DNA of 64,000 nucleotides from Schmidtea polychroa. Taxonomy: Eukaryota. The stretch spans positions 22,384,001-22,448,000 of the forward strand of contig CM097885.1 of NCBI GenBank assembly GCA_044892525.1, given 5' to 3'. Made by a program: the position numbers and the translations under genes. Each line of letters opens with the position of its first letter. The first letter of the stretch is position 1. Shown here piece by piece: positions 1 to 60,619 of the stretch. Below the pieces are notes generated by a model. It saw only the letters and a list, made by a program, of their open reading frames with translations. It was not told the DNA's origin and made no database searches.

Positions 1-1273
1 TTTTTATTTATTCACATTTGGAACGACCAATCTCAAATTGTTGATGAAAATTTATCCAATAACATGAAAGATAATGTAAAAAAGTTGAGATTTAAAAATC
101 GAATGGATTGAATATTCAGTTTTATTTTTTTTTGTTTTAAATATTCATTGGTGGAATTTTAGACATTCAATCTATGAAAGTCTAATTTCAATCAGTTGTT
201 TTAGTTTTAATTTAAAATTGTTTTTTAACTTATAATCCATTTTAATTAATAATGAATAAGTTTTTCAAGGATTATAAATGGCTATTTAAATATTAAAAAT
301 TTTAAATGTTAAATTTTTAAATTTAAAAAATAAAATTTTTTTTTAATTTAAAAATTAATTTTAATCCATATTTACAGCTTGGAGATGGGTCATACTGTCA
401 TCACTTTTCAAATTTATATTAGTTATAAAAATATGATTTCTGCATTTATGCTTAAGTGACTATTCGTCCGTAGATTTCTGGGATTTTGTCTCTAAAACAA
501 GGCTTGCTTCCCAGTTTATTTTTTCCCGGATTCTGCATTTCTTCATTAAAGTCATAAAATAATTAGTTGAAACTGGAGCTACTATTCTGCTATTACAATT
601 AAAATTTTGAAACAGTACTTTTGTTGAAATTTTGAAAGATATCTCAAAGGGAACCTAATAAAAGGAAGGGATCATAGTTGTCAAAAAAAAATTTGAATTA
701 GTGAGAAGACTTTAACGAATGCTGATATTTTGTTAAGAACAATTGTTTTATCCAAGAAACATTTAATTATAGAAAAATATAATTATTAATTGTTGTATTA
801 AATAATACTTCCAAAAGTAGAACATAGGCAAAACGTCTTGTGTCATTGGAAGTTTCAATAAAAATGCTTACAGTGTTGAAGTAGTATGATGTGAAGCCAT
901 AACACTAAAATACCATTCCCTACTAAATTCTTTTTTCCTCTTTGATTTCACAAAATTCTTGTAAGCGGATTTCAAAGATTATTAGTTCATTTAATTTGGA
1001 ACAATCTCTCTATAAAGTATTTCCATCAATTAACTAGAGAAAAATATTTTTTTTACGATTTTTCATCAATCACCTCAACAGATTTCAAGGATTTCCAACC
1101 CATTCGATTAGCAACGACCTCTTCTACGAATCTCTACTAACCATTTACAAAAAATAATCAAAACATACTTATTCTTATAAATTTCCTGCGTAGATTTCAA
1201 AGATTTATAACTCATTGATTCGTAATTAATAATTATATAATTATAATAATAATAATAATAATAGTAGGTAGTT

Positions 1274-1307
1274 ATGTGCACTCTAGATCCATGTGCACTC
1301 TAGATCC
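1274..1307 (+). repeat. 17-bp tandem duplication in the terminal repeat
   Basis: ATGTGCACTCTAGATCC x2, followed by C- and T-runs and three ATCGATTACGT motifs (~1462, 1498, 1533); mirrored at the right end. Confidence 0.9.
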
Positions 1308-1314
1308 AGATACC

Positions 1315-1357
<43 letters not shown>

Positions 1358-1372
1358 AAACCCCCCCCCTAC

Positions 1373-1404
<32 letters not shown>

Positions 1405-2896
1405 TTTAAAAGACCCCCCCCCCCCATATTTTTTTTTTAAATTTAAATTTTTGTTTTAATTATCGATTACGTAATAATTTTATTTTTTGTTTTAATCATC
1501 GATTACGTAATAATTTAAAATTTTTTTAAAACATCGATTACGTCATTGATTTTAATTTTTTATAAGAATTTTTTATGTCATTATACTTGAAATTTAATTC
1601 TCTGTTAAATGAGACTATGATGTAATCAAAATTCTGAAATTTCATTTTTAGTACACGATTTTTAAATTTACACATCTTTTTAAACAAATTGAGATATTTT
1701 CACTCAAACAATATATAGATAGAATTTTAATCTCTATAAAATGACATCAATATTTACTTCAAATTCATAATCATAACACCTTAAACAATGTATTTTTCAG
1801 CCAACTTTTACATACACACATATTTTCAACTTTTAAAAAATACAAATTAATCATCTATACTTAACTCATAGTAAATAATTATATTAAAAGACATATTAAA
1901 AGATGTATTAAAAACTAAACATTTATTAAAATCCTAGAGAAATTCGATCACTATCTAATTTCCAAATCGGTGATATGACATCTTTCTCATCTATTTTATA
2001 TCCCTGTATTGACATATTTACAAACCATCTTTCCCCATCTTTATATTCAATTTTATATAACAAAGACATATTGCATACAAAGACACACATGACTCATCAT
2101 ACTTTTTAATATATTACGTTGCGGTATTTTAAAATTTAAATTTATTTTAAAAACTTATTTTGATGGTTAAGTAGACAAAATAAGATTATTGCACATACTT
2201 TGGATTATCATATATATAGTCTATCAGACAAGATATTCTGTTCCTCTACGGGTAATGGTCACAAAGATACTGCTAAAACTTTATTACACACAATGTATAA
2301 AAAATCTTATTAGTGTCCACACATGCGACAAGTTATTATTATTATTATTATTATTATTATTTTCAAAGTATTATAATTATATATACTCCTAGTCTATCCG
2401 ACAAGATATTCTGTCCCCCTATGGGTAATGGTCACAAAAGTAAAGGTCACAAAGGTAAAGGTCACAAATGTACTGCTAAAAATATTCAAGACAAAACTTT
2501 AATAAAGAAATTCTAAATATTATACTTTAAATATACACTAAAATTTATTAACACATTGGGTAATGGTCGCAAAGGTAAAGGTTACTAATGTACTGCTCGC
2601 AAAGGTAATACTCACATTCAACATGTCGTAAATTATTTTCAAAGTATTATTATTATTCATTATTAAAATTAAAATTATTATTAAATTCTGACCAACTTAA
2701 ATCAATGAAGGGATAGGACAAAAATATATTACGTTGCGGTATTTTAAAATTTAAATATATTTTAAAAAACTTATTTTGACACTAAAGTTGACTTATTTAA
2801 CAAAGATATAATTATTGCACATGCTTTGCATAAATATTATTATTATTTTTTTTGAATTTTCAATATTTTCTTTCAAAGTATTAACACGCGCGGGAG

Positions 2897-2928
<32 letters not shown>

Positions 2929-3037
2929 GAAAAAGCTAAAATATGGTTTACACATACACAACCTATTAACAATTATTATTGCAAATATTAGTGAAAAACC
3001 TAAAATATTTTTTACACACATATACAACCCATTAAAC

Positions 3038-3084
<47 letters not shown>

Positions 3085-3729
3085 TATTATTAGTCAAAAA
3101 CCTAAAATAATTTTTACACACTAAGTTATGGGGTAGAGAATTATTATATGTTTGCAATATTCTGTGTTTGCCTCTACAGGAAGTTGTCAATAAGGAGCGA
3201 TAATTTACAATTTTACACATACATTCTATATACACATACCTTGTTTAACATGGGTGTATATATTCCTAGTCTATCCGACAAGATATTCTGTCCCCCTATG
3301 GGTATTGCTAGCAAGAGTACTACTCACATTCAACATGTCGCAAGGGTATATTAATTAAGGTTAGTAAATAAAACTTATGACACATACTATTTTTAATAAT
3401 ATTTAAACGATATAAATCAAGACAAGAGAGGACAAGGCAAAGTTTATGCATTTATTATTGCCAGGCCTAATGAGCAGTGACCAAATATCTGTGCCTGAAA
3501 GACACGGTGGATATTTGTTCGCGTCCACAAGGGTCGTCTGTGCCTCCCCAAGTGGGGTCAGAAGAACCTGGACATTATAGTTCTCCGTACGGAACATTAC
3601 GCCTAGCATGGGTAGTCAACTACCAGCACATTTGAAACGTATTAAAAATATATTTCAAAATACATGCGTCATTGGCACTATAACCAAATTAATTAATGTT
3701 TTCACTAACACAAATATATATTTACAGAG

Positions 3730-3773
3730 GCCTCCCACTAGTTGGATTACAACCGCCCACCACGACGATCAGC
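3730..3773 (-). ncRNA. SRP/7SL Alu-domain-like RNA motif (left-arm copy)
   Basis: Reverse complement of the motif at 9578-9621. Confidence 0.55.
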
Positions 3774-5114
3774 TTGCGAATATATATTAATTAAGGGATA
3801 AAGAGGGCCCCCCAACCCTATTATATTTAATTTACAAAATAATGTTTTTAAAGGGCTTCTCCGTCAGTTTTCTCACTCTTCTGATTTTTTTCTGGAATTT
3901 GTCGGTAATCTAGCATTATTATTATTATTTAAATTATTATTATAAATATTATAATTATTATTTATTATTTTTAAGATTTTATTCTGAGAGCAAATTCTAA
4001 TAATATCAACAAATTTGTATTTATTTTAATTACTATTATCAATTACTTAGTTGGCGAAGTCCTAAACAAAGAACTCTATTGAACCATCTAATAAAACAGA
4101 ATATGATCATCTTTTAAATTAATTAATAAAATATTTTTATTATGATAAAGAAATAAACCTAGTTCTTTCCGAATTTCATTTATATATCCACAGGTAATGT
4201 CAGTAAGTTGGATTCATCTATAAATTTATATCACATTTATTATTTAAAGTTAAACTACTCACTGAGAATGACTGAGATAAAGTTTCGCAAACAATAAACT
4301 GTAGTTCTCTGGATAGAAACGAAATAATTTTCAAAAAATCCACTAAAATTTTATCATAAATAGTATTGAATAAATAATTTTGAAATTCTGTTCTAAAATA
4401 GAGTTATAAAATTATTTAATATACAAATTAACTTTACTTTGAATTTAAAAAACTAACTATAAAATTTGCTTATTATTACCAAAAATTTAATATCTTTATA
4501 AAAATATTTAAGCATAAGTAAATAACATTAATTAATCTTAATTTTAATTTATATCAATTCATTAAATTTATAAAATTATTTTATATACAAATTAACTTTG
4601 AATTTAAAAAACTAACTATAAAATTTGCTTTTATATTTAAACAAAGTTTTAAACAAGTTATAATTAAATTATTTTTCGTAAAAAATGATTATATAAAGAT
4701 TAAATATTATTACTTAAAAATAATTTTACTTTTTATTGGAAATTTATTTTTCTTACATAAATTATTACCAAAAATTTAATATCTTTATAAAAATATTTAA
4801 GCATAACATTAATTAATCTTAATTTTAATTTATATCAATTCATTAAATTTATAAAATTATTTTATATACAAATTAACTTTGAATTTAAAAAACTAACTAT
4901 AAAATTTATTTTTATATTTAAACAAAGTTTTAAACAAGTTATAATTAAATTATTTTTCGTAAAAATGATTAATTAAAGATGATGAACTATAAAATAAATA
5001 TTATTACTTGAAAATATTTTTATTTGTTATTGGAAATTTATTTTTCTTACATAAATTTTAATATCTTTATAAAAATATTTAAGCATAAGTAAATAACATT
5101 AATTAAATTAATCT

Positions 5115-5710
5115 AACAACCAAGTACTTACATCTAGACACTAACAACTAGACACTAACAACTAGTTACCGTTTACATAGTACAAGATATCAACAACCTA
5201 CAACTAGATACCAACAACCTGTTACCAACAATGTATTACAAATGGCTACCAAGTACTAACAACTATCTACTACCAACCAGATACTAACAACCAAGTACTT
5301 ACAACTAGACACTAACAACTAGTTACCGTTTACATAGTACAAGATATCAACCACAACAACAACAACAACGACAACTGGATACATACAACTAGATACCAAC
5401 AATCTGTTACCAACTATGTATTACAAATGGCTACCAAGTACTAACAACTATCTACTAACAACCAGATACTAACAACCAAGTACTTACAACTAGACACTAA
5501 CAACTAGTTACCGTTTACATAGTACAAGATATCAACAACAATAACAACAACAACAACTGGATACATAGAACTAGATACCAACAACTTGTTACCGAATAGG
5601 TATTAACAACTATCTACTAAGTACCAACCTAAATTCAATCACTCCCCAAGTATTTTCAACTACTCACTAACAACTACCAAGTACTAAGCACTTACAACTA
5701 GGTGTTAACA
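5115..5710 (+). repeat. CAA/CTA-rich ~160-180-bp tandem repeat (mirrored at ~7640-8240)
   Basis: CAACTAGACACTAACAACTAGTTACCGTTTACATAGTACAAGATATC recurs at ~5146, ~5302 and ~5487. Confidence 0.9.
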
Positions 5711-6349
5711 AATAGATTTAAAAGAAACTTGTTCTTCATTGAAGAAAATGATAATCATTGAATGAAAATAATAATAAAAATGCAACTGATTGACTGAATT
5801 CAAGGTACCAGTACTTGTAAGATTCCAAATAACTAGGTAAAAATTGATGAAATTATTGTAAAAATAACATGTAAAACATTTAAATTATTCAAAACCTAGT
5901 AAATAAATATCATAAAAAGTCAAGAAAGAAAGAACTTGAAATTATAGTCATTGATAATCCAGTAAATATTTATCTTAAATACTAATCATTCAAGTTATTA
6001 ATAAAGTAATTTTAATGATTTCAAATTGATTGACTGATTGCTCAAATTATTCAGAAAATTCAGTATAAATTCATTACAAATTATCAAAGTCGTCAATCTA
6101 GACTAAAAATCAAAATTTAATAAAATCAACAAAATATTTCACCTCATCTACCATCTACCACCTAATTAGAGATTATATTTTCTCATTGATTGAAGAAAAC
6201 TTTGATAAAATTATTCTGAGGTGCTAAGAATCTTCATTGAAATAGAATTATTAGTGGGAAAATAAATTGATTGATCAAATTATTCATCGATTCCAACCAA
6301 ATTTTATTATTCATTGAACTATATGATAAATTATCTAAAAATATATTAA

Positions 6350-6591
6350 CCCTTTCCAGTCCAGTGATTCCAAATGGAATCATTAGTTAAAAACTCAGTT
6401 TTTTTCTCTCTACTACCAAAACGGTTGGCAGTAACTAGTGAGAACTATAGTAAGATATGTTTTTAACAGTTGGCACAAGGGGGCAACAAAGAAAATGAAG
6501 TAAAATATTTTTATGATAAAATAAGTAGTTTTGGTACCTACTTACTGCATATATTTTTTTTTTGTTTTGAAAAAATTTGGGCTGGAAAGGG
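6350..6591. mobile_element. piggyBac-type MITE (242 bp)
   Basis: TTAA duplication (6346-6349, 6592-6595); TIRs CCCTTTCCAGTCCA / TGGGCTGGAAAGGG. The mirror position in the right arm (~7002) has a single, empty TTAA. Confidence 0.9.
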
Positions 6592-9577
6592 TTAAAAGAA
6601 TTGGTTATTATTTCAAAGTCAAATACCATTATTCATAAAGGATGGAAATCTTAATTGAGATAGAATTAATGTCTACTGGTATAATTGCTAAAGGAAAATA
6701 CACTGACAAGTGGTATTGAAATGTTTTTAATGAAAAGTTGACGTATAAGATTGGTGATATATTAAGTATTTATTTAAAAAATATTTTACTCAAACATCAC
6801 TTGAGTATTTAGTTCAATTTTACAGAAGATATATTTGTGGGGTGAATATAAATCATTCGATGATTATTAGTATGAAAATAAATATTGTAAATCAGAGCCT
6901 GTTGATTGTTCACATTATTAATATAAGGATTATTTCTTACCTAAATTGTCACATGTCAAACCATGAAATGGTATTTGACTTTGAAATAATAACCAATTCT
7001 TTTAATATATTTTTAGATAATTTATCATATAGTTCAATGAATAATAAAATTTGGTTGGAATCGATGAATAATTTGATCAATCAATTTATTTTCCCACTAA
7101 TAATTCTATTTCAATGAAGATTCTTAGCACCTCAGAATAATTTTATCAAAGTTTTCTTCAATCAATGAGAAAATATAATCTCTAATTAGGTGGTAGATGG
7201 TAGATGAGGTGAAATATTTTGTTGATTTTATTAAATTTTGATTTTTAGTCTAGATTGACGACTTTGATAATTTGTAATGAATTTATACTGAATTTTCTGA
7301 ATAATTTGAGCAATCAGTCAATCAATTTGAAATCATTAAAATTACTTTATTAATAACTTGAATGATTAGTATTTAAGATAAATATTTACTGGATTATCAA
7401 TGACTATAATTTCAAGTTCTTTCTTTCTTGACTTTTTATGATATTTATTTACTAGGTTTTGAATAATTTAAATGTTTTACATGTTATTTTTACAATAATT
7501 TCATCAATTTTTACCTAGTTATTTGGAATCTTACAAGTACTGGTACCTTGAATTCAGTCAATCAGTTGCATTTTTATTATTATTTTCATTCAATGATTAT
7601 CATTTTCTTCAATGAAGAACAAGTTTCTTTTAAATCTATTTGTTAACACCTAGTTGTAAGTGCTTAGTACTTGGTAGTTGTTAGTGAGTAGTTGAAAATA
7701 CTTGGGGAGTGATTGAATTTAGGTTGGTACTTAGTAGATAGTTGTTAATACCTATTCGGTAACAAGTTGTTGGTATCTAGTTCTATGTATCCAGTTGTTG
7801 TTGTTGTTATTGTTGTTGATATCTTGTACTATGTAAACGGTAACTAGTTGTTAGTGTCTAGTTGTAAGTACTTGGTTGTTAGTATCTGGTTGTTAGTAGA
7901 TAGTTGTTAGTACTTGGTAGCCATTTGTAATACATAGTTGGTAACAGATTGTTGGTATCTAGTTGTATGTATCCAGTTGTCGTTGTTGTTGTTGTTGTGG
8001 TTGATATCTTGTACTATGTAAACGGTAACTAGTTGTTAGTGTCTAGTTGTAAGTACTTGGTTGTTAGTATCTGGTTGGTAGTAGATAGTTGTTAGTACTT
8101 GGTAGCCATTTGTAATACATTGTTGGTAACAGGTTGTTGGTATCTAGTTGTAGGTTGTTGATATCTTGTACTATGTAAACGGTAACTAGTTGTTAGTGTC
8201 TAGTTGTTAGTGTCTAGATGTAAGTACTTGGTTGTTAGATTAATTTAATTAATGTTATTTACTTATGCTTAAATATTTTTATAAAGATATTAAAATTTAT
8301 GTAAGAAAAATAAATTTCCAATAACAAATAAAAATATTTTCAAGTAATAATATTTATTTTATAGTTCATCATCTTTAATTAATCATTTTTACGAAAAATA
8401 ATTTAATTATAACTTGTTTAAAACTTTGTTTAAATATAAAAATAAATTTTATAGTTAGTTTTTTAAATTCAAAGTTAATTTGTATATAAAATAATTTTAT
8501 AAATTTAATGAATTGATATAAATTAAAATTAAGATTAATTAATGTTATGCTTAAATATTTTTATAAAGATATTAAATTTTTGGTAATAATTTATGTAAGA
8601 AAAATAAATTTCCAATAAAAAGTAAAATTATTTTTAAGTAATAATATTTAATCTTTATATAATCATTTTTTACGAAAAATAATTTAATTATAACTTGTTT
8701 AAAACTTTGTTTAAATATAAAAGCAAATTTTATAGTTAGTTTTTTAAATTCAAAGTTAATTTGTATATAAAATAATTTTATAAATTTAATGAATTGATAT
8801 AAATTAAAATTAAGATTAATTAATGTTATTTACTTATGCTTAAATATTTTTATAAAGATATTAAATTTTTGGTAATAATAAGCAAATTTTATAGTTAGTT
8901 TTTTAAATTCAAAGTAAAGTTAATTTGTATATTAAATAATTTTATAACTCTATTTTAGAACAGAATTTCAAAATTATTTATTCAATACTATTTATGATAA
9001 AATTTTAGTGGATTTTTTGAAAATTATTTCGTTTCTATCCAGAGAACTACAGTTTATTGTTTGCGAAACTTTATCTCAGTCATTCTCAGTGAGTAGTTTA
9101 ACTTTAAATAATAAATGTGATATAAATTTATAGATGAATCCAACTTACTGACATTACCTGTGGATATATAAATGAAATTCGGAAAGAACTAGGTTTATTT
9201 CTTTATCATAATAAAAATATTTTATTAATTAATTTAAAAGATGATCATATTCTGTTTTATTAGATGGTTCAATAGAGTTCTTTGTTTAGGACTTCGCCAA
9301 CTAAGTAATTGATAATAGTAATTAAAATAAATACAAATTTGTTGATATTATTAGAATTTGCTCTCAGAATAAAATCTTAAAAATAATAAATAATAATTAT
9401 AATATTTATAATAATAATTTAAATAATAATAATAATGCTAGATTACCGACAAATTCCAGAAAAAAATCAGAAGAGTGAGAAAACTGACGGAGAAGCCCTT
9501 TAAAAACATTATTTTGTAAATTAAATATAATAGGGTTGGGGGGCCCTCTTTATCCCTTAATTAATATATATTCGCAA

Positions 9578-9621
9578 GCTGATCGTCGTGGTGGGCGGTT
9601 GTAATCCAACTAGTGGGAGGC
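9578..9621 (+). ncRNA. SRP/7SL Alu-domain-like RNA motif (right-arm copy)
   Basis: GCTGATCGTCGTGGTGGGCGGTTGTAATCCAACTAGTGGGAGGC: helix GATCGTC/GGCGGTT, UGUAA hinge, helix TCCA/TGGG, complementary loops TGGT/ACTA, closing GCT/GGC. Resembles the 5' end of metazoan 7SL. Confidence 0.55.
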
Positions 9622-10267
9622 CTCTGTAAATATATATTTGTGTTAGTGAAAACATTAATTAATTTGGTTATAGTGCCAATGACGCATGTATTTTGAAATA
9701 TATTTTTAATACGTTTCAAATGTGCTGGTAGTTGACTACCCATGCTAGGCGTAATGTTCCGTACGGAGAACTATAATGTCCAGGTTCTTCTGACCCCACT
9801 TGGGGGAGGCACAGACGACCCTTGTGGACGCGAACAAATATCCACCGTGTCTTTCAGGCACAGATATTTGGTCACTGCTCATTAGGCCTGGCAATAATAA
9901 ATGCATAAACTTTGCCTTGTCCTCTCTTGTCTTGATTTATATCGTTTAAATATTATTAAAAATAGTATGTGTCATAAGTTTTATTTACTAACCTTAATTA
10001 ATATACCCTTGCGACATGTTGAATGTGAGTAGTACTCTTGCTAGCAATACCCATAGGGGGACAGAATATCTTGTCGGATAGACTAGGAATATATACACCC
10101 ATGTTAAACAAGGTATGTGTATATAGAATGTATGTGTAAAATTGTAAATTATCGCTCCTTATTGACAACTTCCTGTAGAGGCAAACACAGAATATTGCAA
10201 ACATATAATAATTCTCTACCCCATAACTTAGTGTGTAAAAATTATTTTAGGTTTTTGACTAATAATA

Positions 10268-10311
<44 letters not shown>

Positions 10312-10420
10312 GTTTAATGGGTTGTATATGTGTGTAAAAAATATTTTAGGTTTTTCACTAATATTTGCAATAATAATTGTTAATAGGTTGTGTATGTGTA
10401 AACCATATTTTAGCTTTTTC

Positions 10421-10452
<32 letters not shown>

Positions 10453-10987
10453 CTCCCGCGCGTGTTAATACTTTGAAAGAAAATATTGAAAATTCAAAAA
10501 AAATAATAATAATATTTATGCAAAGCATGTGCAATAATTATATCTTTGTTAAATAAGTCAACTTTAGTGTCAAAATAAGTTTTTTAAAATATATTTAAAT
10601 TTTAAAATACCGCAACGTAATATATTTTTGTCCTATCCCTTCATTGATTTAAGTTGGTCAGAATTTAATAATAATTTTAATTTTAATAATGAATAATAAT
10701 AATACTTTGAAAATAATTTACGACATGTTGAATGTGAGTATTACCTTTGCGAGCAGTACATTAGTAACCTTTACCTTTGCGACCATTACCCAATGTGTTA
10801 ATAAATTTTAGTGTATATTTAAAGTATAATATTTAGAATTTCTTTATTAAAGTTTTGTCTTGAATATTTTTAGCAGTACATTTGTGACCTTTACCTTTGT
10901 GACCTTTACTTTTGTGACCATTACCCATAGGGGGACAGAATATCTTGTCGGATAGACTAGGAGTATATATAATTATAATACTTTGAA

Positions 10988-11026
<39 letters not shown>

Positions 11027-11994
11027 TTGTCGCATGTGTGGACACTAATAAGATTTTTTATACATTGTGTGTAATAAAGTTTTAGCAGTATCTTTGTGAC
11101 CATTACCCGTAGAGGAACAGAATATCTTGTCTGATAGACTATATATATGATAATCCAAAGTATGTGCAATAATCTTATTTTGTCTACTTAACCATCAAAA
11201 TAAGTTTTTAAAATAAATTTAAATTTTAAAATACCGCAACGTAATATATTAAAAAGTATGATGAGTCATGTGTGTCTTTGTATGCAATATGTCTTTGTTA
11301 TATAAAATTGAATATAAAGATGGGGAAAGATGGTTTGTAAATATGTCAATACAGGGATATAAAATAGATGAGAAAGATGTCATATCACCGATTTGGAAAT
11401 TAGATAGTGATCGAATTTCTCTAGGATTTTAATAAATGTTTAGTTTTTAATACATCTTTTAATATGTCTTTTAATATAATTATTTACTATGAGTTAAGTA
11501 TAGATGATTAATTTGTATTTTTTAAAAGTTGAAAATATGTGTGTATGTAAAAGTTGGCTGAAAAATACATTGTTTAAGGTGTTATGATTATGAATTTGAA
11601 GTAAATATTGATGTCATTTTATAGAGATTAAAATTCTATCTATATATTGTTTGAGTGAAAATATCTCAATTTGTTTAAAAAGATGTGTAAATTTAAAAAT
11701 CGTGTACTAAAAATGAAATTTCAGAATTTTGATTACATCATAGTCTCATTTAACAGAGAATTAAATTTCAAGTATAATGACATAAAAAATTCTTATAAAA
11801 AATTAAAATCAATGACGTAATCGATGTTTAAAAAAAATTTTAAATTATTACGTAATCGATGATTAAAACAAAAAATAAAATTATTACGTAATCGATAATT
11901 AAAACAAAAATTTAAATTTAAAAAAAAAATATGGGGGGGGGGGTCTTTTAAAAAATTAAAAAAAAAAAAAAAAAAAAAGTAGGGGGGGGGGTTT

Positions 11995-12041
<47 letters not shown>

Positions 12042-12092
12042 GGTATCTGGATCTAGAGTGCACATGGATCTAGAGTGCACATAACTACCTAC

Positions 12093-12171
<79 letters not shown>

Positions 12172-13250
12172 TTTACCTTTGAACAAAATATCTATAAACA
12201 AGTTAAAGGTCTGCCTATGGGTTCTAGCATATCAGGACTGCTAGCAATCATCTTTATGGATAACCTCGAACGACAGACACTGAGGACCATACAACCCATC
12301 GGTTTCTATGGAAGATATGTAGATGATATCTTCATCACGACCAAAAACAGAAAAGAAGCGGAGGAAATATTTCATACATTCAATGCGGCTCATCAAGATA
12401 TTAAGTTCGAAATCGAATATCCGGAAGAAGATGGATCCCTCAATTTATTGGATTTGAGAATCAAAATAGAAGAAAATACTCCAACATACGGGTTCTACAG
12501 AAAACCAGCTCGCAAAGAAATATTTATGCACCAAAGATCAGCGCTTCCATACTTACAGAAAGTACATGTCATAAGAAACGAGAAACGAAGAATAGCCAAT
12601 CGATGCACGGAGAAAAACGAAAACTTTAAAGAGCAATCAAATTTCAATAAAATCCTACACCGAAACGGATACCAAGGTGAGGACATTGAACAAATGAATT
12701 CTACCCCAAGAAGATCTAGGGAATTAACACAAAAGAATCAGAAATATTTCTATCTGAATATCCCATTCATCAGTGACATACTCGACTTCAAGATCCTGAA
12801 AGAACTTAAACGTACCGGTCTTCCAATTCGGATAGCACATAAATCTTGGACATTGAGAAGGGCTCTGGCAGGCAACATAAATAGAGAAAACAATTGCACA
12901 ATGAAAAACTGCCAGACACCGAAAGATATGTGCTTTAGAAAAAACATCGTCTATTGCATCACGTGCAATGTATGCAATGAAATCTACATTGGAAGTACCC
13001 TCAGGACATTGCACCAAAGAGTTAAAGAACATCTAGATCCTGGTGGAACATCCTCGTTGGGCAGACATCTCCGGCAGTGTCAGCCAACAGAGGAAAGAAA
13101 AAAAATATTTCAATAGAAATCATAGCTAATGGAAACATCCAAAAGAAAAATGTCACAATCAAAGAAGCAATTCTCATCATAAACAGACAGCCAAAGATCA
13201 ACACTAAAGAAGAAATCAATGAAATCATGAATTTGATCTGTTGTCATTGA
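12172..13250 (+). mobile_element. Penelope-like retroelement, 5'-truncated: RT C-terminal part plus GIY-YIG endonuclease (Neptune/Naiad-like)
   Basis: FTFEQNIYKQVKGLPMGS, YGRYVDDIF, LNLLDL, YRKP, Cys-rich linker, VYCITCNVCNEIYIGST, RVKEH. After a -1 shift in the A-run at ~13098-13105 it continues to KEAILI...PKIN and a stop at 13250. The 5' end abuts (AAT)n. Confidence 0.9.
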
Positions 13251-48303: not shown

Positions 48304-48636
48304 AGTAGTGAGGAATCTATGCACCCCAGCACCCCCACCCTAAAAAAAAACAGCGCTATTGACCCATATTTTCCACATTTATATGCTTTTTTACCCCATA
48401 TTCTTCACTTTTTTTAACTTTTAAACTTTGTCCCCTATTGCCATTAACCCTTAATTTCTTCCCTTAAAAGTAAAAAAGTTCGGAATAGATGTATTTATAG
48501 ATTAGTAATTCCGAGAAAAGGTAACGGGGTGCATAGATTCCTCACTACTTGGTCTTAAGGATTTAATGTTATAAGGATTTAATGTTATAAGAATATCAGA
48601 TTACCTAATTCATAATGATCTAGGTCGCCTGATCAC
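48304..48636 (+). repeat. Left TIR of the Polinton
   Basis: Reverse complement of 61278-61610; contains an inverted copy of its first 24 bp (48526-48549) and TAAGGATTTAATGTTA x2. Confidence 0.97.
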
Positions 48637-48709
48637 TTTTAGATTTAAAAAAAATAAAAATTAATATCAAAACCAAAACATCGTATCCAACCAAAAGATT
48701 CTTTTAAAA

Positions 48710-51700
48710 ATGGAAGGTATTTTCAATTGTGAAATTTGTGAAAAAAATTTTAAAAATAAAACTGCTTTAACATCTCATAAAAAATCAAAAGACCATTTAA
48801 TAAAAGCTAACACACTAGATGACACTAATTCCAAAATCTGTACTAAATGTAAGGATAGATATTTATTTTCAGGTTATAAGAAGCATTTTAAAAATTGTAT
48901 TGGAGTTCCTAAAAACAGAGAAATATTCGAATGTTCAGCATGTGGAAAAACGATGAGGATAAAATCTTTTTACTTAAGACACATAGAAGATTGTGGTCTT
49001 GAAGCAAAAGATTCTGATTCAAACTCAATGATTGAAAAAGCTGAAAAACTAGAGTTTAATTGGGATGACTTCAATCACACCGATATAATTGCAGAAGTAA
49101 AACGAGGACCCAGATCAATCATGCAATATATAAGAGAAAATAAAAAAAAAATAATATCATCAATGGATGATGCTATAAAAAAATTTGGTAGATCAAGATT
49201 TAATGTTATAAAAGTTAAATTTACAGGAAATGTAAAATACTGGAGAGGAGATGATTCAATCGCAATGCCTCTAGATGTAAAAATTGAAACCTCATATAAA
49301 TATTTATTTTCTACAAAAGCAGGAAATAAACTTGTTAATGATATAGCTAAAGAATTGGAAGAAAAACAAGAACAGGTGGAACAAGAACTAGGAGAATCTA
49401 ATTTAAGATTCCACTCTTTTCAAAATATAGAGATTGAATACTGGAGAGGCGCACCACCAAATCCTAAATCTTTTATTCACACACCATTCACCTCCAACCA
49501 TGTTATAAATGTACAGAATAAAGATAATAAATGTTTTCAATGGTCAATACTTGCACACTTACATCCTCAAGCAACTAACCCACAGAGAGTTCAAAAATAT
49601 GAAGAATATGAATCTGAATTAATTTATCCAAAAGATTTTTCCCACCCAATGAAAATTGAAGATGTTCCAGCATTTGAAAAATTAAATAATCTTAAAATTA
49701 ATATTTATCAATTCATTCCAACCAAAATTACAAAAACTAGAAAAAATAAAAATTATAAACACATTATTCCTATTTACATTTCTAACATGGAAATCTCAGA
49801 TGAAAAGAGAGAAGTAGATCTTTTAATATTAGAAGAAGGTAAACCAGATGAAGACTTTGATGGAGAAGAATATGGTGAAGAGGTTCAAAGCGTTCACCCG
49901 AGGAGAGAAGCAGAAGAAGGCATTTCATTAGAACCAGAAGCAGAAAGCACTATGTTAGATAAAAAACTTCATTATATCTTAATAAAGAATTTTCAAAGTT
50001 TTATGAAAGGAAACACACTCATTCGTGGAGGCATATGTTGTAAAAGATGTTTATATCATTCAAGTTCAAAACTTGCTGCTATTAAACATGAGAGACTCTG
50101 TTGTAAGAATCAACCTGCTTTAATAAAAATGCCACACAAGAAAAATGCTAATATGAGGTTTAATAACTATTCCAATCTATTAGAAGCATTGGGAGTGGTT
50201 TATTGTGATTTTGAAGCTATAAATGTAAAACTAAGACGAACAAAAACTAATACTGTAAAACTAACAAAACAATTACCCTCTGCTTATAAAATGTTTTTTA
50301 AAAGTAATTATCCAGAACTTGTAGAATCTAGAGAATATTCATTTAGAGGAACTTCTGACAAAGAGACTCTAGATCATTTTGTTAAAACTTTAAATAATCT
50401 AGAACATGAATTATATATAATATTAAAATCCAACTTTCCTATGAATTTTTCAGAAGAACAAGAGGAAGAATATAAAAATGCAACACACTGCTGGATGTGT
50501 AAACAAGAGTTTTATATTCAGGAGGAGGAGGATGAGGAGCCAAAGGTTGCAGACCATGATCATTTTAAAAGAGAAAATAATTACAGAGGAGCAGCCCATA
50601 AAAAATGTAATCTCAATTGTAAAAACCAACACACATACCATTTATATTTCACAATCTTTTTGGCTATGATATTCACCTATTCATTAAGCATCTCGCCGCA
50701 AATGCTAAAAACTCTTTCAAGGTTATTGGACTTACAAAAGAAAAATATAAAAGCATTCAATATGGATGCTTTAAGTTTTTGGACTCGTTAAATTTCTTAG
50801 GGATGTCTTTGGATGGGATTGCTAAAACTATGAACCCTGAGGATTTTAAATATACAAAAGAACATGTGTTATTAAAAAACAATATTCCATTAGAGGAATA
50901 TAATACCTGTCTAGCAAAAGGAATCTATCCATATGATTATATAGACTCCTTTGAAAAATATAATGAATTACTCCCACCCCAAGAAGATTTCTTTTCTGTT
51001 TTAACACAATCAGGGATTTCTGATCAGGAATATTCCCGTGCAGTTAAAATGTGGAATCTATTCAACTGTAGAAACCTTGGAGAATATACTGACATGTATC
51101 TTTCCTTGGATGTTTATATCTTAGCTGATTGCTTCGAGACATTTTCAAAAGCTTTTGAATTAAAACCTTATAATTATATAACCGCTCCCTCTCTAGCTTG
51201 GGATATATTATTATATACCATATGGACTGATGAAGATGTAGCAGTAAGAAATAAAACTATTGAATTATTAGTTGAGCTTGATATGTTTAATGTATATAAA
51301 CATAATATTAGAGGAGGTATTTCTTCAGTACAAGGGAATAGAGAAATAAATGCTAATAATTTTACAACTCTTTATCCTAAATTTTTCAAAGATCCTAATG
51401 CTCTATATGTAGAAATAACAAACCCAGAAGATCGTAAGGAAATAATGGAAGGTCTTTCTAATCCTTCTGAAATAATGTATATAGATGCAACAGCTTTATA
51501 TGCGGGAGTAATGACTCAATACCTTCCAATTGGCAAGTTCACCTGGAAAGAACCCACTGAGGAATTAATACAAGAAATTCTAAAAACACCAAAAGATTCT
51601 CAATTTGGATATGTCATAGAATGCGATCTTGAATATCCCAATGAAATAAAATCCAGAACTAGATATTTTCCATTTGCTCCTGTAAGAAGAAAGATCTCTC

Positions 51701-53019
51701 CTGAAGAACTATCAGATTGGCAGATGGCTCAGGATAGATCGCCCTGTATAAAACTTTTATGCGATCAGACCGATAAAACTGATTACCTTTGTCATTATAG
51801 ACTCCTTCAGTTTTATCTCTCCCATGGAATGGTTTTAAAAAAAGTACATTCCATTATTAAATTTCGACAAGCCCCTTTTATGAAAAAATTCATAGAGGGA
51901 AATATTTTGAAAAGAAATGCAGCAAAGAGAGCTGGAAATGCATTTCTTGATATGATTTACAAACTCCTGAACAATGCGGTCTTTGGAAAGACCATGGAGA
52001 ATATAGACAAGTACACACGTGTAGAGCTTTTGACCAATACATCAAAAGACCTTAATAGGTACAACCGGATAATTGGAAAGCCCACATTTAAAAATGCCGA
52101 GATATTCTCTAGTAACCTTATAGCTATAGAGATTAAAAACTCTGTAAAAACTTATAATAAACCAATCTTTATAGGTTTTTCAATTTTAGAACTTTCAAAG
52201 CTTCAAATGTATGAGACCTACTATGATGTTCTAGTACCCCATTTTGGAGATCGAATATCCATGCATGCTATGGACACTGATAGTATGTTTTTAAAAGGTC
52301 ATAGTAAAGATTTAAAAAAGGAAATAAGTGAAAACGAAACCTTAAATAAATTAATAAACAACTCTGGAGAATTATTTACTTTTAAAGATGAAAAACCAAA
52401 TACTCCAATAAGTGGAGGAGTGTTTATTAGACCTAAACAATATTCTCTTGAAATGAAAGACAAACCAATTATGAAAGAGCATACAATAAAATTTATAATA
52501 GGGGAGGGAGAAGGATCTGTTGAAATAGATCACACATTTGAATATCCTTCATTCCCTGAAAACCCGAAAAGCTATAAAGAAAATAAAAGTAAAGGAATTC
52601 AAAAATCAGTGTCAAAAACCTTCACACATCAAGAGTATAAAGATTCATTAAATATAAATTATAAAAATAAAATTGCTAAAACCCATCATCTTAAATCAGA
52701 GAAACATAATATATATCTTGAAGAGTGTAACAAGATTGCTATAACAAATTATGATGATAAAAGATTTATACTTTCTGACTTGAAGACAACATTACCTATT
52801 GGAAATGATTTAATCCCTATAATAAAAAATCTTGATAAAATAAATGAAATTTATAACCTAGAGATTACAGACCTTCAACTTGCTAAAGTAGAAATCCAAT
52901 ATCCTGAAATATTAATTCCTAAACCTTTATATAATCAAGTTCAAAATATAAAACCTATAGAACTTAAATATTTTAATACTGATCCTGAATATATAAAGAA
53001 TTTAAAGATCATAAATTAA
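48710..53019 (+). CDS. polB: Protein-primed family B DNA polymerase (~1,430 aa; one -1 shift at 50621-50625)
   Basis: N-terminal zinc fingers; NKDNKCFQWS...LHYILI; YCDFEA (ExoI); CWMC...DHDH...GAAHKKCN insert; after the shift FHNLFGYD (ExoII), KGIYPYDY, IRGG, YIDATALY, KLLNNAVFGK, MDTDS, DDKRF. Confidence 0.95.
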
Positions 53020-53147
53020 TGATTCATAGGTTGGCTTTCAACGATATTTAATTTTTTAATAATAAAATGTCGACAATTAATTTAAGCAACTATAGCAACC
53101 TGATCTACTTTTTTAAAAATACACCCATTTTATAAGTAAGAATTCTT

Positions 53148-53741
53148 TTACCATTTTTCTCGAGATGTTTTTTTATTACTTATAACATTAGCCACCATGC
53201 CCTCCCTTTTTAATCTTATAACCTCATTCTTTATATCTTGTATTATTTGATTTGATTTCATTATTTCTTCGTCTGTCAGGATTCCATCTTCCAAAGCTTT
53301 TAATTGAAATAAAAATAATTTAGAGATTCCTAATTCTATTGATAAACAAACTTCTCTATATAAACTTTTCTTTTTAGAAGTATAAGATAATGAAACTATT
53401 TCAGTTAAGAAACCATCAGCCACAGAAATACTTCCAAGTATTACAGGTGCAAGAGTAACAACTGGTAAAGTTATGGGTAAAATAACTGTTAATATTGCAG
53501 ATGCAAATCCTAAAGAATAACCTATAACTTTTAAAACTGTATTCCCTTTATTCCATCTATTTTTAATTTTTTTATAATGCTTTAATAAATCTTGTAAATG
53601 TAAGGTTTCTGATTTAAATTCTTTTACTCTCATAATTTCAAGTTCTGTGGGAGCCGAGGCCTTGGAACCTTTGTGACCTTCGGAATAATATCCTGATGAT
53701 CTCAATTCTGGGTAAATTTTTTCTTCTCTTACTTCTTCCAT
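53148..53741 (-). CDS. Polinton putative membrane protein (197 aa)
   Basis: Central hydrophobic hairpin (VIGYSLGFASAILTVILPITLPVVTLAPVILGSISV) between helical regions; N-terminal IYPEL. Confidence 0.7.
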   Translation of the reverse strand: MEEVREEKIYPELRSSGYYSEGHKGSKASAPTELEIMRVKEFKSETLHLQDLLKHYKKIKNRWNKGNTVLKVIGYSLGFASAILTVILPITLPVVTLAPVILGSISVADGFLTEIVSLSYTSKKKSLYREVCLSIELGISKLFLFQLKALEDGILTDEEIMKSNQIIQDIKNEVIRLKREGMVANVISNKKTSREKW

Positions 53742-53749
53742 TTTAATAA

Positions 53750-54733
53750 TTAAAAAAATAAGACTTTATTCTTCTGAGCACCATCTGGCACCAATACTCG
53801 GATATCAAAAGAAACTCTTGTTGAGAGGATATCTTTATACAATTCTCTCAATGCTTTACGAACTTCATCAACATCAACCTTTTTTTCATAAAATATTAAA
53901 TCTATATATTGTACAAGTGAACTAGAAAAATGAATATTCTTACTTTTAACTTTATGTAGTCCATGTGAATGAGTATTAACATACCAATCTCTGTGTGGTA
54001 AATCATAACTAGTCATTATAACATCACCCTTTTCAAGCTTACTATTATAATCACATTTCACAAACCATTTCATTCTTTCATTATCATCATCAAACAAAAA
54101 GAAATAAGGATCAATAATCTTTACAACCATAAAAACACCCCATTCTTTACTGTTTGTTGTTATTAAACTTGGTTCTATAAAATGTTTATATGTATGGGGT
54201 AATAATGTTTTATTCTGTTCTAATTCAGCAGCTCTTTTTCTAATACTATGTGTGGTGTTAATGTGTGTTCCATGAGACTCTAAATTTGAAATTCTTTTAT
54301 TAAATGATGTAATCAACTCATTTATTATATTATATATTGTATTAAATTTATTATCCATAAGTTGTTTATTTTTAGAATTTAATATGCTAGTATTTAACTT
54401 TACAACTTGTTCAGTTAACAGACTTTGTAACTTGTCAAATTTATCATTAAATCGTTGTTCGATATTATTAAGCTTTGATTCTATTGAATCAATTTTTGTT
54501 GTTAATAAACTTTCAATTCTTGTTGTTGTTAAATCAGTATATTTTTTATTAACTGCATCAGAATCATCGGTTGGTAAAGATAAATCTTTTATCTTGTGTC
54601 CATTTAAATTTAAATCTCCTTTCATTGAATCACCTCTTTCATTAATATATCTCTTTTCTGTAAGAGATATAACATCTTCATCTTTTAATCCATCATTATA
54701 TAATCCAAACTTATTATAACTAGCATAATTCAT
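53750..54733 (-). CDS. Putative fiber/attachment protein (327 aa)
   Basis: GDSMKGDLNLNGHKIKDLSLPTDDSDAVNKKY (tail-fiber/adhesin neck-like motif), long heptad region, IRKR, C-terminal globular part. Confidence 0.6.
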   Translation of the reverse strand: MNYASYNKFGLYNDGLKDEDVISLTEKRYINERGDSMKGDLNLNGHKIKDLSLPTDDSDAVNKKYTDLTTTRIESLLTTKIDSIESKLNNIEQRFNDKFDKLQSLLTEQVVKLNTSILNSKNKQLMDNKFNTIYNIINELITSFNKRISNLESHGTHINTTHSIRKRAAELEQNKTLLPHTYKHFIEPSLITTNSKEWGVFMVVKIIDPYFFLFDDDNERMKWFVKCDYNSKLEKGDVIMTSYDLPHRDWYVNTHSHGLHKVKSKNIHFSSSLVQYIDLIFYEKKVDVDEVRKALRELYKDILSTRVSFDIRVLVPDGAQKNKVLFF

Positions 54734-54770
54734 TTTTATAGTAATAAAAATAAAATCCTTAGACGTCCCT

Positions 54771-55604
54771 CTAGACTTGTTTCAAATGTAAACACATTGA
54801 AATCTTTTCTCCATTAAAACTAATTAACTCTCCATCTTCATCAACAATTCTAAAACTAATATCCATTATATTTTTTCTACATAATGGTAAATAATTTGGG
54901 GGGTTCATTCTTTCAACCATTTTATATCCAACTCGCACGGTATTAGAAGGAAAGGAATATAAAATATTTGCATGTTTACCATTATTGTATGATCCCATTA
55001 TACAATCACACTCTATATTTATAGAATTTGTATTTGTTAATTGTATAATATTTTTAGATTTAATGGTTGATGGTGGATATTCTTTGACTTCAAAACCTAA
55101 AATAGTATGAAAGAAACTAGAAGTAGTAACACCAAGTCCAACATTTTTTAAAGTTGTAATACATTTTGAAGTTTGAATATCTGCTTTTATTTCTACATTT
55201 CCATTTGTTTCTTTTAAAATTGTTTTAGCTAAATCTGTTATTTCATATGATCCTGGTTCGATTGTTATAATGGTGTATTCCTTAGAAGTAATCTTTTCAT
55301 ATTCACTATTTTCCAATATACTAGGGAGAATAAATGAAACAAAAGGGAGGTCTCTATTATCACTCTTAAATATAATAAATTTATTATTATTATTATTTAT
55401 ATTAAAAATAGTATTAAAACAGCTAAACCACAAGAGTCCTAATTCATAATTTAAATCTTGATCTAAATTTATTGAATCTTCAAAATTTATAGTAAAATCT
55501 GATTCTTTTGAATTTATTAATAAACTTCTTGAATATTTATGTGACATTATGTTTGCTATTTTTTTTAAATAATCTTCCGGAAGGTTGCGAAGCTCCATTT
55601 TCAT
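54771..55604 (-). CDS. Minor capsid protein (penton, PX)
   Basis: SDFTINF..I.L...YELGL, IEPGSYEI, INIECD.I.GSY.NG...ILYSF, GYK..E....YLP, IVDEDGELISFNGE. Confidence 0.88.
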   Translation of the reverse strand: MKMELRNLPEDYLKKIANIMSHKYSRSLLINSKESDFTINFEDSINLDQDLNYELGLLWFSCFNTIFNINNNNNKFIIFKSDNRDLPFVSFILPSILENSEYEKITSKEYTIITIEPGSYEITDLAKTILKETNGNVEIKADIQTSKCITTLKNVGLGVTTSSFFHTILGFEVKEYPPSTIKSKNIIQLTNTNSINIECDCIMGSYNNGKHANILYSFPSNTVRVGYKMVERMNPPNYLPLCRKNIMDISFRIVDEDGELISFNGEKISMCLHLKQV

Positions 55605-56032
55605 AGTAAAGATTTTAAATCATTATAAATTTCTTGGATTAAGGAAGTGAAACCTTCTCCTTTGGATTTATTCAATCTATACAAAACATATAAGCTTAAA
55701 ATACCACATATTTTAGTATTATTAGGTTGAACCTGTAAAGAATTAAAAGTGTAGTCCGAGAGATAGTCTTCAACTTCTTTAGTGGGTTTAATCCCAAAAG
55801 AATCAAAGTATATAGATTTATTATATATACAAACCCAATGAGATCCTTTTTCATTTGAATTTTGAAAATTTATAATGATATTCTTTGGAGTGTCTTCTTT
55901 CAGACTCGACAATTCATCATTCATTAATATTTTTATTTTTAAATTTAAATAATCTGCATAATCTTTTAAATCAAAATTTGTTTTTGTATTTATTCCAAAT
56001 GTTTTTAAAAAATCTAATATTGAAGGAGTCAT
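55601..56032 (-). CDS. Adenain-like maturation cysteine protease
   Basis: IIN......GSHWVC, YFDSFG, Q......CG catalytic motifs. Confidence 0.92.
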   Translation of the reverse strand: MTPSILDFLKTFGINTKTNFDLKDYADYLNLKIKILMNDELSSLKEDTPKNIIINFQNSNEKGSHWVCIYNKSIYFDSFGIKPTKEVEDYLSDYTFNSLQVQPNNTKICGILSLYVLYRLNKSKGEGFTSLIQEIYNDLKSLL

Positions 56033-56040
56033 TTTATATT

Positions 56041-56829
56041 TTATAACTTCGTATACTTATTAAATTTATCTTTTGAAATTATTCCTTGTTTTAATAATTC
56101 TTTAGAAATCTTTAAAATATCAGAATCTAAATTATTATGTCCTGCTTTTTTAGCTGCTAATAGTTTTCTTAATTCAATAAAAAGATTGATTGGGTTTATC
56201 TCCTTACCCTTTCCCTGACCCTGGCCCTCTCCTTCTGTGACAATATAACCCCTTTCATTTTTATTTAAATATTTCTTTAAATCTTGAATATGTTTTGCTT
56301 TAGCACTACCATGTACTAATTCTATTAAATTTAAATATTTTTTAATTTCTAGAAGATCAACATTCTCTGAGGGATATCCACAAACTAATCCATAAAAATC
56401 ATCTGTAAATTCAAAATCTAGGTGTTTAGTATTATAAACATTTTGTGAATGAATACGTGATTTATTTTCTGAATTTAAATATAACAGAAAGTCATGTTTA
56501 TTAATTGTTATTATTTGATATCCTTCAACATTAATATTAAATGTAGGTTTAATTGTTTTACTTAAACTCACATTAATTTTAGGATCAAGTATAAGAGGTT
56601 TTATATTTAAATCTTCCAACCATGGTAATTCTTTTAAATCTTGTTTATCTTCCAACTCTTTAAATTTTAAAACTTCTAACTCTTTTATGGCTTTAATTGT
56701 TGGTCCTTGTTGTTGGATTACCTCATTTAATATTATAGATTCAGCGTGTTGAGTTGTATCTTTTTTATTATATTTATCTTGTTCTGATTGTAATTTTTTT
56801 AAAAGTGCTAATCTTTCTTCATATACCAT
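56041..56829 (-). CDS. Conserved Polinton core/structural protein (262 aa)
   Basis: C-terminal ELRKLLAAKKAGHNN...ELLKQGII preceded by GEGQGQGKG, as recalled from invertebrate Polinton proteins. Confidence 0.65.
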   Translation of the reverse strand: MVYEERLALLKKLQSEQDKYNKKDTTQHAESIILNEVIQQQGPTIKAIKELEVLKFKELEDKQDLKELPWLEDLNIKPLILDPKINVSLSKTIKPTFNINVEGYQIITINKHDFLLYLNSENKSRIHSQNVYNTKHLDFEFTDDFYGLVCGYPSENVDLLEIKKYLNLIELVHGSAKAKHIQDLKKYLNKNERGYIVTEGEGQGQGKGKEINPINLFIELRKLLAAKKAGHNNLDSDILKISKELLKQGIISKDKFNKYTKL

Positions 56830-56851
56830 TTTAATGGTATTAAAAATGGTA

Positions 56852-57460
56852 TCATTTTGGTAAAGGATCCGTTGGAAAGGGCTTCAAGTATAATCCTTTA
56901 CCATTTTTAGTTTTACAAAGGCATCCATTCTTTAAAGATTTACATATTTTTTTTAAATCTTCTTTATCTTTTGAAGATAAAGATTCAGATGTAGAAATTT
57001 GATTTTTTAAAAAATCATTTAAACCTCTACCTTTATAAGGATCAAGATAGAGACCTTTGCCCTGAGACTTTTGCCGACTCCCCTCATATGGATTAAGATA
57101 GAGACCCTTTCCAAAGGACACTCCCCCTTTAGCTTGCCCTACCTTCTTCATTGAATCGATTTCAGTTTGTAGTTTTTCTTTTTCTAGGTCTGTCTTTTGA
57201 GATTCTTTAGCTTTTTGAACTGTAGTTGCAATTCCTCCAGCTATTCCAGCAGCACCTGATAAACCAGCAATGATTGCAGGTATTAAAGCAGCCAATGGAA
57301 GAATGCCTCCGGATTTGGAGGAACTCCCTATATGTTCTTTAACTTGTTCTTTTACATGTTTTCCAATAAAATATTTCTTACCAGAGATTACTACTGATTT
57401 ATTTTTATTTGAATTTATTAATTCTTGCAAAGATTCCTCTGTAGGGTTTTGTGTTGTCAT
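56852..57460 (-). CDS. Adenovirus pX-like core protein (202 aa)
   Basis: SGGILPLAALIPAIIAGLSGAAGIAGG resembles adenovirus pX GGILPLLIPLIAAAIGA; three GKGLYL(N/D/K)P repeats. Confidence 0.75.
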   Translation of the reverse strand: MTTQNPTEESLQELINSNKNKSVVISGKKYFIGKHVKEQVKEHIGSSSKSGGILPLAALIPAIIAGLSGAAGIAGGIATTVQKAKESQKTDLEKEKLQTEIDSMKKVGQAKGGVSFGKGLYLNPYEGSRQKSQGKGLYLDPYKGRGLNDFLKNQISTSESLSSKDKEDLKKICKSLKNGCLCKTKNGKGLYLKPFPTDPLPK

Positions 57461-57476
57461 TTTATAATAAATAAAA

Positions 57477-60092: not shown

Positions 60093-60146
60093 TTTTATAT
60101 ATTAAAATTTACACACACAATAGGATTAATTAAATATATTATGTAA

Positions 60147-60227
60147 GCCATTATAGCGGAGTGGGAATAGGCTTCAATTTTATCACCGGGAGTCCGGGTT
60201 CAATTTTCGATTTTGGTCAATTTTTTT
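60147..60227 (+). ncRNA. tRNA-like Pol III unit 1
   Basis: A box TAGCGGAGTGG (60154), B box GGTTCAATT (60197), T7 at 60221. Confidence 0.6.
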
Positions 60228-60379
60228 CGATATTTTTTTTTCAACGGAATCTGATTCAGCGTACTGATTTTAGTATATATTTAAATTTTCAGATGGATCT
60301 GAGTGGTAGTTGTCGAGAAAATGAATAATTAATTATTAATTTCATCAATAAATAGTCACACATTAACAACTTATTTTAT

Positions 60380-60461
60380 ATTGAGTATAGCTTAGTGGTA
60401 ATAGCACTCGACTGCATTCCCAATACCAATGGGTTCAAATCCCATTTCGGTCATTTTTTTT
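60380..60461 (+). ncRNA. tRNA-like Pol III unit 2
   Basis: A box TAGCTTAGTGG (60388), D stem GCT/AGC, T arm ATGGG-TTCAAAT-CCCAT, T8 at 60454. Confidence 0.7.
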
Positions 60462-60619
60462 CAAATTTTTTTTTTAAACAAAATATTGATCAGCATACTC
60501 GATTTAGTACTTGTACAAATTTTAAAGGTGATTGGTCAACGGCAACTCTTGGAAATTTAAGATCAAAAACGTTTTAACTTGAATCGATTATTTATAGTCT
60601 AAAAAATGACAAAAATTCA

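Follow-up and report, generated by a model that had tools for sequence, protein, structure and literature searches.

The 64,000-nucleotide stretch of Schmidtea polychroa DNA analysed here (contig CM097885.1, positions 22,384,001 to 22,448,000; hereafter the window) contains, at 1263-12093, a gene-less palindrome. Our leading reading, which we hold with considerable confidence, is that this palindrome has been inserted whole, with Polinton ends, at four sites of the genome, and that it is a non-autonomous satellite which depends for its replication and integration on a coding Polinton family of about 15 kb with the same ends.

A palindrome with Polinton ends at four loci

An initial annotation, made from the letters of the window, had described inverted arms of about 5.1 kb, a 336-bp spacer and AGTAG termini, and our measurements agree. 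When 1263-6349 was aligned globally to the reverse-complemented 7002-12093, 5076 bases matched, with one substitution (at 1528) and seven indels. Each of the seven, the C4/G5 difference at 3546/9806 among them, falls within a homopolymer or (TTA)n, just as the annotation had said of the arms. Together, the two main arms make up 10,179 of the 10,831 bp (~94%). As 6592-6630 mirrors 6967-7005, the true loop is 6631-6966, which is indeed 336 bp long. The element reads AGTAGG...CCTACT, thus beginning with AG as Polinton-type terminal inverted repeats (TIRs) do, and is identical in this respect to the coding 15-kb family. A miniature inverted-repeat transposable element (MITE) had been noted in the left arm only. 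It occupies 6350-6591 with TTAA on both sides, while the mirror position, 7002-7005, is a single empty TTAA. Its inverted ends, 14 bp long, are near-perfect, and the MITE is one of a dispersed family, as 40 of 40 scored candidates (of 254 genome-wide) match over the full length at 98-100%. From its TTAA and CCC ends we take it to be of the piggyBac type. The 6-bp flanking repeat that had been proposed, AATAAT, is present, but both flanks consist of (AAT)n, so it is uninformative as a target-site duplication (TSD) at this locus, and the proof comes from sister copies.

The 53-nt junction of MITE, arm and spacer has exactly four matches in the 781-Mb assembly, two on C1 and one each on C3 and C4. 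Full palindromes, the one-sided MITE included, are present at four loci on three chromosomes, with sizes of 10831 (window), 10812, 10882 and 11569 bp. The three other full copies have unrelated flanks and unambiguous TSDs (ATAATT, AATGGG and TCAATT). A fifth member of the lineage is a 7,045-bp derivative with the TSD GACGAG, whose centre was lost between 12-bp microhomologies. A genome search for further insertions with distinct 6-bp TSDs had been set beforehand as a check, and four of the four other lineage members have them, the window copy's own repeat sitting in a microsatellite. An artefact would not repeat a one-sided MITE at four loci with separate TSDs, and we therefore regard the palindrome as real. 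Public short-read contigs were also inspected. Those designated X1 (6601-6996) and X2 (6601-6699) extend 30 letters into the arm, one short of our bridging rule, and possibly come from the source study of the assembly; they were not counted as support. The X5 contigs mainly carry a different junction, 6305 to 6628, and the X11 public run gave no junction contig.

Concerning coding content, the claim that open reading frames (ORFs) are absent stands with a small correction. The longest stop-free frame is 119 codons (6758-7117), a length matched by 9 of 200 local shuffles, and has no match in Pfam; 1929-2051, however, is a 41-codon ORF remnant. A decayed gene in the arm interior was considered and rejected, since tblastn with Polinton proteins from the fetched loci and the window returned only the TIR-ORF remnant and repeat-derived frames. 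No clear codon periodicity was seen in the arms against 70%-identical sister elements, whereas an integrase control displayed it. ORF scan, Pfam and tblastn revealed none of the genes for a protein-primed PolB, a retroviral-type integrase, an ATPase or a capsid in the palindrome, and ARAGORN found no tRNA genes.

A coding Polinton family with the same ends

The terminal 27-mer of the palindrome has 182 exact matches in the genome. We took the first 100 of these places and fetched 33 other head-to-tail terminus pairs, two of which duplicate others, flanks included. A 6-bp TSD was present in 28 of the 33 (chance ~0.0007 per pair). Seven pairs bound elements of ~15 kb with TIRs of ~1.45 kb and uninterrupted frames, which we call the helper. 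These encode an integrase with a chromo domain (PF00665), an A32-type ATPase (PF04665) and a 156-codon homologue of the TATA-binding protein (PF00352, E 2e-15; for example L031:2163-2630). Their polymerase (1326-1333 codons) is 28% identical over 746 residues to the PF03175 polymerase of the window (E 7e-65), and a 428-codon protein was placed nearest to double-jelly-roll clusters in an embedding search. Pfam gave no match for the helper polymerase or the capsid candidate, and a PDB search with the polymerase returned nothing informative.

The initial annotation had proposed seeking an autonomous partner through shared termini, and expected a family other than the Polinton that begins at 48304. 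Such a partner exists elsewhere in the genome: the coding ~15-kb family shares 1263-2053, the outer 790 bp, at 93-98% identity including homopolymer indels. Sixteen ends of ~15-kb elements differ from the window by 6-8 substitutions in 490 bp. The reading of the palindrome as a non-autonomous 'all-TIR' satellite is supported both by this coding family and by the sister copies with their own TSDs. Taken together, the TSDs, the lack of genes and the helper-type ends would point to mobilisation in trans by helper proteins.

We rejected the window's own Polinton, at 48.3 kb, as the helper, since its ends (AGTAGTGAGG) agree with those of the palindrome for five terminal bases only and there is no DNA similarity. 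This element (48304-61610) is 13.3 kb long with ~370-bp TIRs and TATATA flanks, and carries genes for an ATPase, an integrase and a double-jelly-roll capsid. Its polymerase is split across two overlapping frames.

We then compared the ends of satellites and helpers. At all 16 tabulated variable sites in 1557-1892, the arms of the window and C4 copies are the same as 14 of 16 helper ends. Among the other satellite arms, 21 of 30 have T at both 1750 and 1850, and non-helper alleles are found in 1557-1892 in the copy at C1:160.66 Mb and, partly, in the C3 copy. Inward of 1935, the window copy differs from helpers at 6 sites, where it matches satellite alleles. In the window and C4 copies, both arms have the helper-type outer ~650 bp. 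Read most simply, the window end is recombinant, and the window/C4 sub-lineage would have taken up a helper end that is now on both arms.

Homogenised arms and recurrent folding

The centre of the full copies is nearly invariant: over 660 bp there are no differences for the C4 and C1:160.66 Mb copies and one indel for C3. The four full copies share one centre, indicating that the palindrome formed once. Outside simple repeats, identical differences from the window are found in both arms at 5 places in the C3 copy and at 11 in the C1:160.66 Mb copy, several of the latter belonging to a single end-exchange event; one-sided differences among the copies are ten in all. Differences between copies are thus often in both arms, and therefore the arms must have been re-copied onto each other. 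The C3 copy and the 7-kb derivative have a 17-bp deletion at 3214 together with 3413A in both arms; at C1:160.66 Mb one arm only has this pair of changes, and the window and C4 copies lack it altogether. In addition, most relatives have a ~720-bp segment at 6110, of which the only remaining instance among the full copies is in the MITE arm at C1:160.66 Mb. Variants in both, neither or one arm, along with this one-sided segment, indicate that homogenisation proceeds in patches and in both directions, without reaching the MITE beside the loop. In older relatives the arms have diverged (46 mismatches in 3.4 kb, 37 in 3.2 kb; several pairs are 92-97% identical), which would favour homogenisation at replication rather than continuous conversion in the chromosome.

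Long arms are common in this family. Nine of the 33 terminus pairs have arms of 2.9-5.7 kb, and three of these nine duplicate the polymerase gene in inverted order. Among relatives sharing the arm interior, the same spacer start is joined to different inverted segments, and re-folding is therefore recurrent. Of the 5.1 kb in each arm, helper DNA accounts for just 790 bp, and the remainder is pieced together from non-coding modules that satellites with other AGTAG-type ends share at 65-97%. The palindrome is thus better understood as belonging to a large, repeatedly re-folded, mosaic-armed satellite family, and less well as the product of one isolated folding of a helper end.

Several other loci were noted. 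The pairs L042/L043, L075/L076 and L047/L048 are palindromes of 11.5-12.5 kb in which the polymerase end of the helper is present twice, in inverted orientation. In each, the two polymerase frames are open, and the palindromes have their own TSDs; L042 and L075 share flanks that resemble the 185-bp tandem of the satellites. A second Polinton family (L073/L074, L087-L089) has a polymerase 56-59% identical to that of the helper, and sub-terminal repeats 85-89% like window 2330-2442 and 3257-3348. From this resemblance, it is a possible source of the inner arm module. Reverse-complementary flanks take the place of a TSD at L087/L090, L069 and L070, which looks like the result of an insertion into one arm of a larger palindrome that was then copied across to the opposite arm. 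The relative L077 has frames matching a DSPc phosphatase (PF00782) and EAP30/Vps36 (PF04157), at 4632-5153 and 6128-6694, which by these matches appear to be host-gene-like pieces within a satellite.

A possible mechanism and its alternatives

The following sequence of events would account for these elements. Either end of a free linear copy would serve the protein-primed polymerase of the helper as a starting point for strand-displacement replication. Where there is a short microhomology, the polymerase may leave its template and continue on the displaced or nascent strand, producing an inverted duplication of one end. Such a fold-back product would retain two functional origins and two integrase sites. 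Displaced single strands could snap back into a long panhandle, in which mismatches would be repaired or copied in patches, so that variants would come to lie in both arms but not close to the loop, and the MITE, which is 39 bp away from the junction, would remain one-sided. Helper and satellite ends may exchange sequence during co-replication, and the helper integrase would finally insert the product with a 6-bp duplication. As the initial annotation supposed, transcription across the palindrome would give a hairpin double-stranded RNA.

A number of points weigh against this account. Every step of it, including template switching, the linear or hairpin form, the terminal protein and mobilisation in trans, is deduced from inserted copies. 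Five of the 33 terminus pairs have no TSD, and that of the window copy is ambiguous. With regard to the helper, the capsid label comes from one embedding search with a recognition value of 2050, below the tool's mark of 2300, and with no Pfam match, and a protease was not identified. Helper-type alleles are also found in 9 of the 30 other satellite arms, which look similarly refreshed, and the direction of the exchange between helper and satellite ends is assumed. Microhomology at the central junction is just 3 bp, and comparison with relatives suggests that the centre may have been reshaped by deletion from an older junction. Finally, patchy two-way homogenisation is equally expected from chromosomal gene conversion between the arms.

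This last point leads to a rival explanation, in which element and helper are the same but the long arms arise and are homogenised in the chromosome, by post-excision gap repair or gene conversion, the route put forward for the extended TIRs of Galileo, and not by template switching on a free molecule. Besides the patchy two-way exchange between arms, it can draw on Galileo, where the accessible part of PMC4168063 describes copies with 4.2/4.7-kb TIRs and transposable element (TE) insertions copied into both, in an element without a self-encoded polymerase. What speaks against it is that arms diverge in older inserted relatives, that fold-backs are frequent (9 of 33) with many different centres, and that helper-type ends occupy both arms in one sub-lineage only. 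On balance we consider it unlikely. We think it very improbable that the palindromes spread by segmental duplication or through another transposase, such as that of the TTAA MITE, with the Polinton ends as passengers. Although two other pairs of family members were duplicated together with their flanks, the five members of this lineage have unrelated flanks and end exactly at the AGTAG termini, and the TSDs are of 6 bp and not TTAA. A fold-back read or an assembly artefact might be suspected from the near identity of the arms, and none of the examined contigs spans the element. Given the MITE with an empty TTAA in the opposite arm, the one-sided substitutions, and the same junction with different TSDs at four loci on three chromosomes, this is scarcely credible.

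A 7SL-like head in the arms

The arms contain a segment resembling the Alu domain of 7SL, the RNA of the signal recognition particle (SRP). Against Rfam RF00017 it scored 29.8 bits (E 6e-5), where the gathering score is 70 and the 7SL genes of the host score ~240 bits. Thirty-nine nucleotides are 82% identical to the 5' end of host 7SL, and the match is limited to the 5' ~45 nt. The middle and 3' parts of host 7SL had no significant match; homology to the full 7SL was therefore discarded, as only the 5' part scored above shuffles. The segment is not a full metazoan SRP RNA with Alu and S domains above the gathering score. Read by eye, its first helix can be drawn with compensating changes. The head alone folds no better than shuffles (z +0.3 to +0.8), and the same holds for the host 7SL head. 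A stable RNA structure at 3440-3840 was also considered, but the z values (-1.15 on the plus strand, -1.79 on the minus strand) are not evidence for one. As for the host 7SL genes, they form a tandem array at C2:31.93-31.98 Mb with a 593-bp period and at least 24 copies.

A 25-mer from the core of the head has 1764 exact matches in the genome. Among the first 100 matches listed, 28 adjacent pairs point outwards within 13 kb, compared with 4 in the opposite orientation. Eight segments were compared across 52 distinct, non-independent arms, and the core varies least: its divergence is 0.58%, against 1.2-4.9% in the seven neighbouring segments. Carriers of the head include at least three other AGTAG-type termini, and it was found in none of the examined 15-kb coding copies.

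We tentatively raise a broader possibility, to which we give less than even chances: the genome may harbour a heritable population of polintovirus snap-back defective genomes, amounting to hundreds of gene-less palindromes of 5-17 kb. These would be re-folded and re-homogenised at each round of replication, would switch or refresh helpers by end capture, and would carry the conserved 7SL-Alu-like head of a small RNA as cargo. If this holds, such palindromes would represent the first defective-interfering DNAs of a protein-primed replicon that are integrated and transmitted through the germ line, and would preserve the panhandle intermediate as a fossil record.

Comparison with known systems

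Short non-autonomous Polintons were reportedly named by Kapitonov and Jurka in 2006. The palindrome resembles Polintons/Mavericks in its AG...CT ends, its TIRs, its 6-bp TSD and an outer 790 bp that comes from a coding family of the same genome. It differs in having no polymerase, integrase, ATPase or capsid gene, and in an arm interior of satellite-specific non-coding DNA. According to the accessible part of a survey (PMC8097293), the TSDs of intact vertebrate Mavericks are 6 bp long and their TIRs measure 46-1447 bp. The 5.1-kb arms are 3.5 times the longest TIR given there, and likewise the ~1.45 kb of the helper, and at base 6 the terminus departs from the (AGT)2 motif that this source gives for vertebrates.

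With snap-back/copy-back defective viral genomes, the palindrome has in common that it is a near-whole-length palindrome of one end, with no coding capacity and two origins. The subgenomic products of phi29 and symmetrical adenovirus minichromosomes are palindromic. Snap-back defective genomes are defined as palindromes of one end in the accessible part of PMC13506859. As far as the available portions of the following sources go, end-derived subgenomic molecules of 1-8 kb accumulate in phi29 and are ascribed to template switching by the polymerase (PMC4974454); panhandles are invoked in PRD1 and adenovirus for replication and restoration of homology, direct evidence being said to be lacking (PMC11886824); such an intermediate is likewise proposed in PMC4046053; and long inverted repeats are generated in integrated invertron plasmids (PMC1864894). 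Defective viral genomes and the phi29 and adenovirus products are transient, arising in infection or in-vitro amplification, whereas the palindrome is integrated, inherited and has been re-inserted several times. Unlike them, it has a long history of its own, with a MITE, tandem repeats and end exchange.

Foldback/Galileo elements of Drosophila also have long modular TIRs with internal tandems (281-bp, 185-bp and 64-bp units in our case). PMC4168063, in its accessible part, describes a transposase-less Galileo copy of 9021 bp with TIRs of 4246 and 4680 bp that contain tandem repeats and TE insertions. Galileo is nevertheless a cut-and-paste element of the P superfamily with 7-8 bp TSDs, in which three of 191 copies are extended (same source), while the palindrome has a 6-bp TSD and a Polinton partner, and long arms are common in its family. 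In its way of working the palindrome is comparable to a non-autonomous Polinton, and in its appearance to a snap-back genome. Having no genes, it is no autonomous Polinton, and its 6-bp TSD and Polinton partner set it apart from Galileo-type foldbacks.

We found no description of palindromic Polinton satellites in the literature, Repbase entries and supplements, which could hold such families, lying outside the search. The accessible parts of PMC6431247, PMC10175614, PMC3671162, PMC4028283 and bioRxiv 10.1101/2024.01.15.575659 contain nothing on them. Replication and transposition of Polintons are modelled through a free linear or panhandle intermediate and protein priming. Inserted palindromes whose 5-kb arms have lineage-specific variants in common, and whose ends are recombinant with those of a coding helper, provide sequence-level evidence on the panhandle intermediate and make this intermediate testable from genome data alone. 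They also indicate that near-perfect 10-kb palindromes can be stably inherited and mobile in an animal genome, and that the requirements in cis fit into about 790 bp. Such palindromes can be taken for assembly errors.

Features of the palindrome

Table 1. Features of the palindrome and its flanks, in window coordinates.
Position	Strand	Feature	Remarks
1257..1262	.	Left 6-bp flanking repeat AATAAT	Within (AAT)n microsatellite
1263..6349	+	Left arm (MITE side), 5087 bp	Arm alignment
1263..2053	+	Terminal segment common to the 1.45-kb TIR of 15-kb coding Polintons	Helper-type alleles 1557-1892, satellite-type from 1935
1929..2051	-	41-codon remnant of the helper's 158-codon TIR ORF	90% identity; tblastn
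2054..3838	+	Sub-terminal satellite module: 48-bp repeats, 64-bp tandem	Common to satellites with other termini
3644..3773	-	7SL/SRP Alu-domain-like head	Core 3724-3773; mirror copy about 9578-9707 on +
4472..5057	+	281-bp tandem repeat, x2	
5199..5628	+	185-bp tandem repeat, x2.3	
6106..6110	+	Site of extra ~720-bp segment	Segment in most relatives and one arm of the C1:160.66 Mb copy
6350..6591	.	242-bp TTAA-targeting MITE	Left arm only
6592..6630	+	Innermost 39 bp of left arm	Ends at fold-back junction (3-bp microhomology ATT)
6631..6966	.	Unique spacer, 336 bp	
6967..12093	-	Right arm, reverse complement of left arm without the MITE	Main part 7002-12093 (5092 bp)
12094..12099	.	Right 6-bp flanking repeat AATAAT	Start of (AAT)26

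Adjoining the palindrome through the (AAT)26 tract, window 12085-13116 contains a fragment of a Penelope-type retroelement with reverse transcriptase and GIY-YIG regions.

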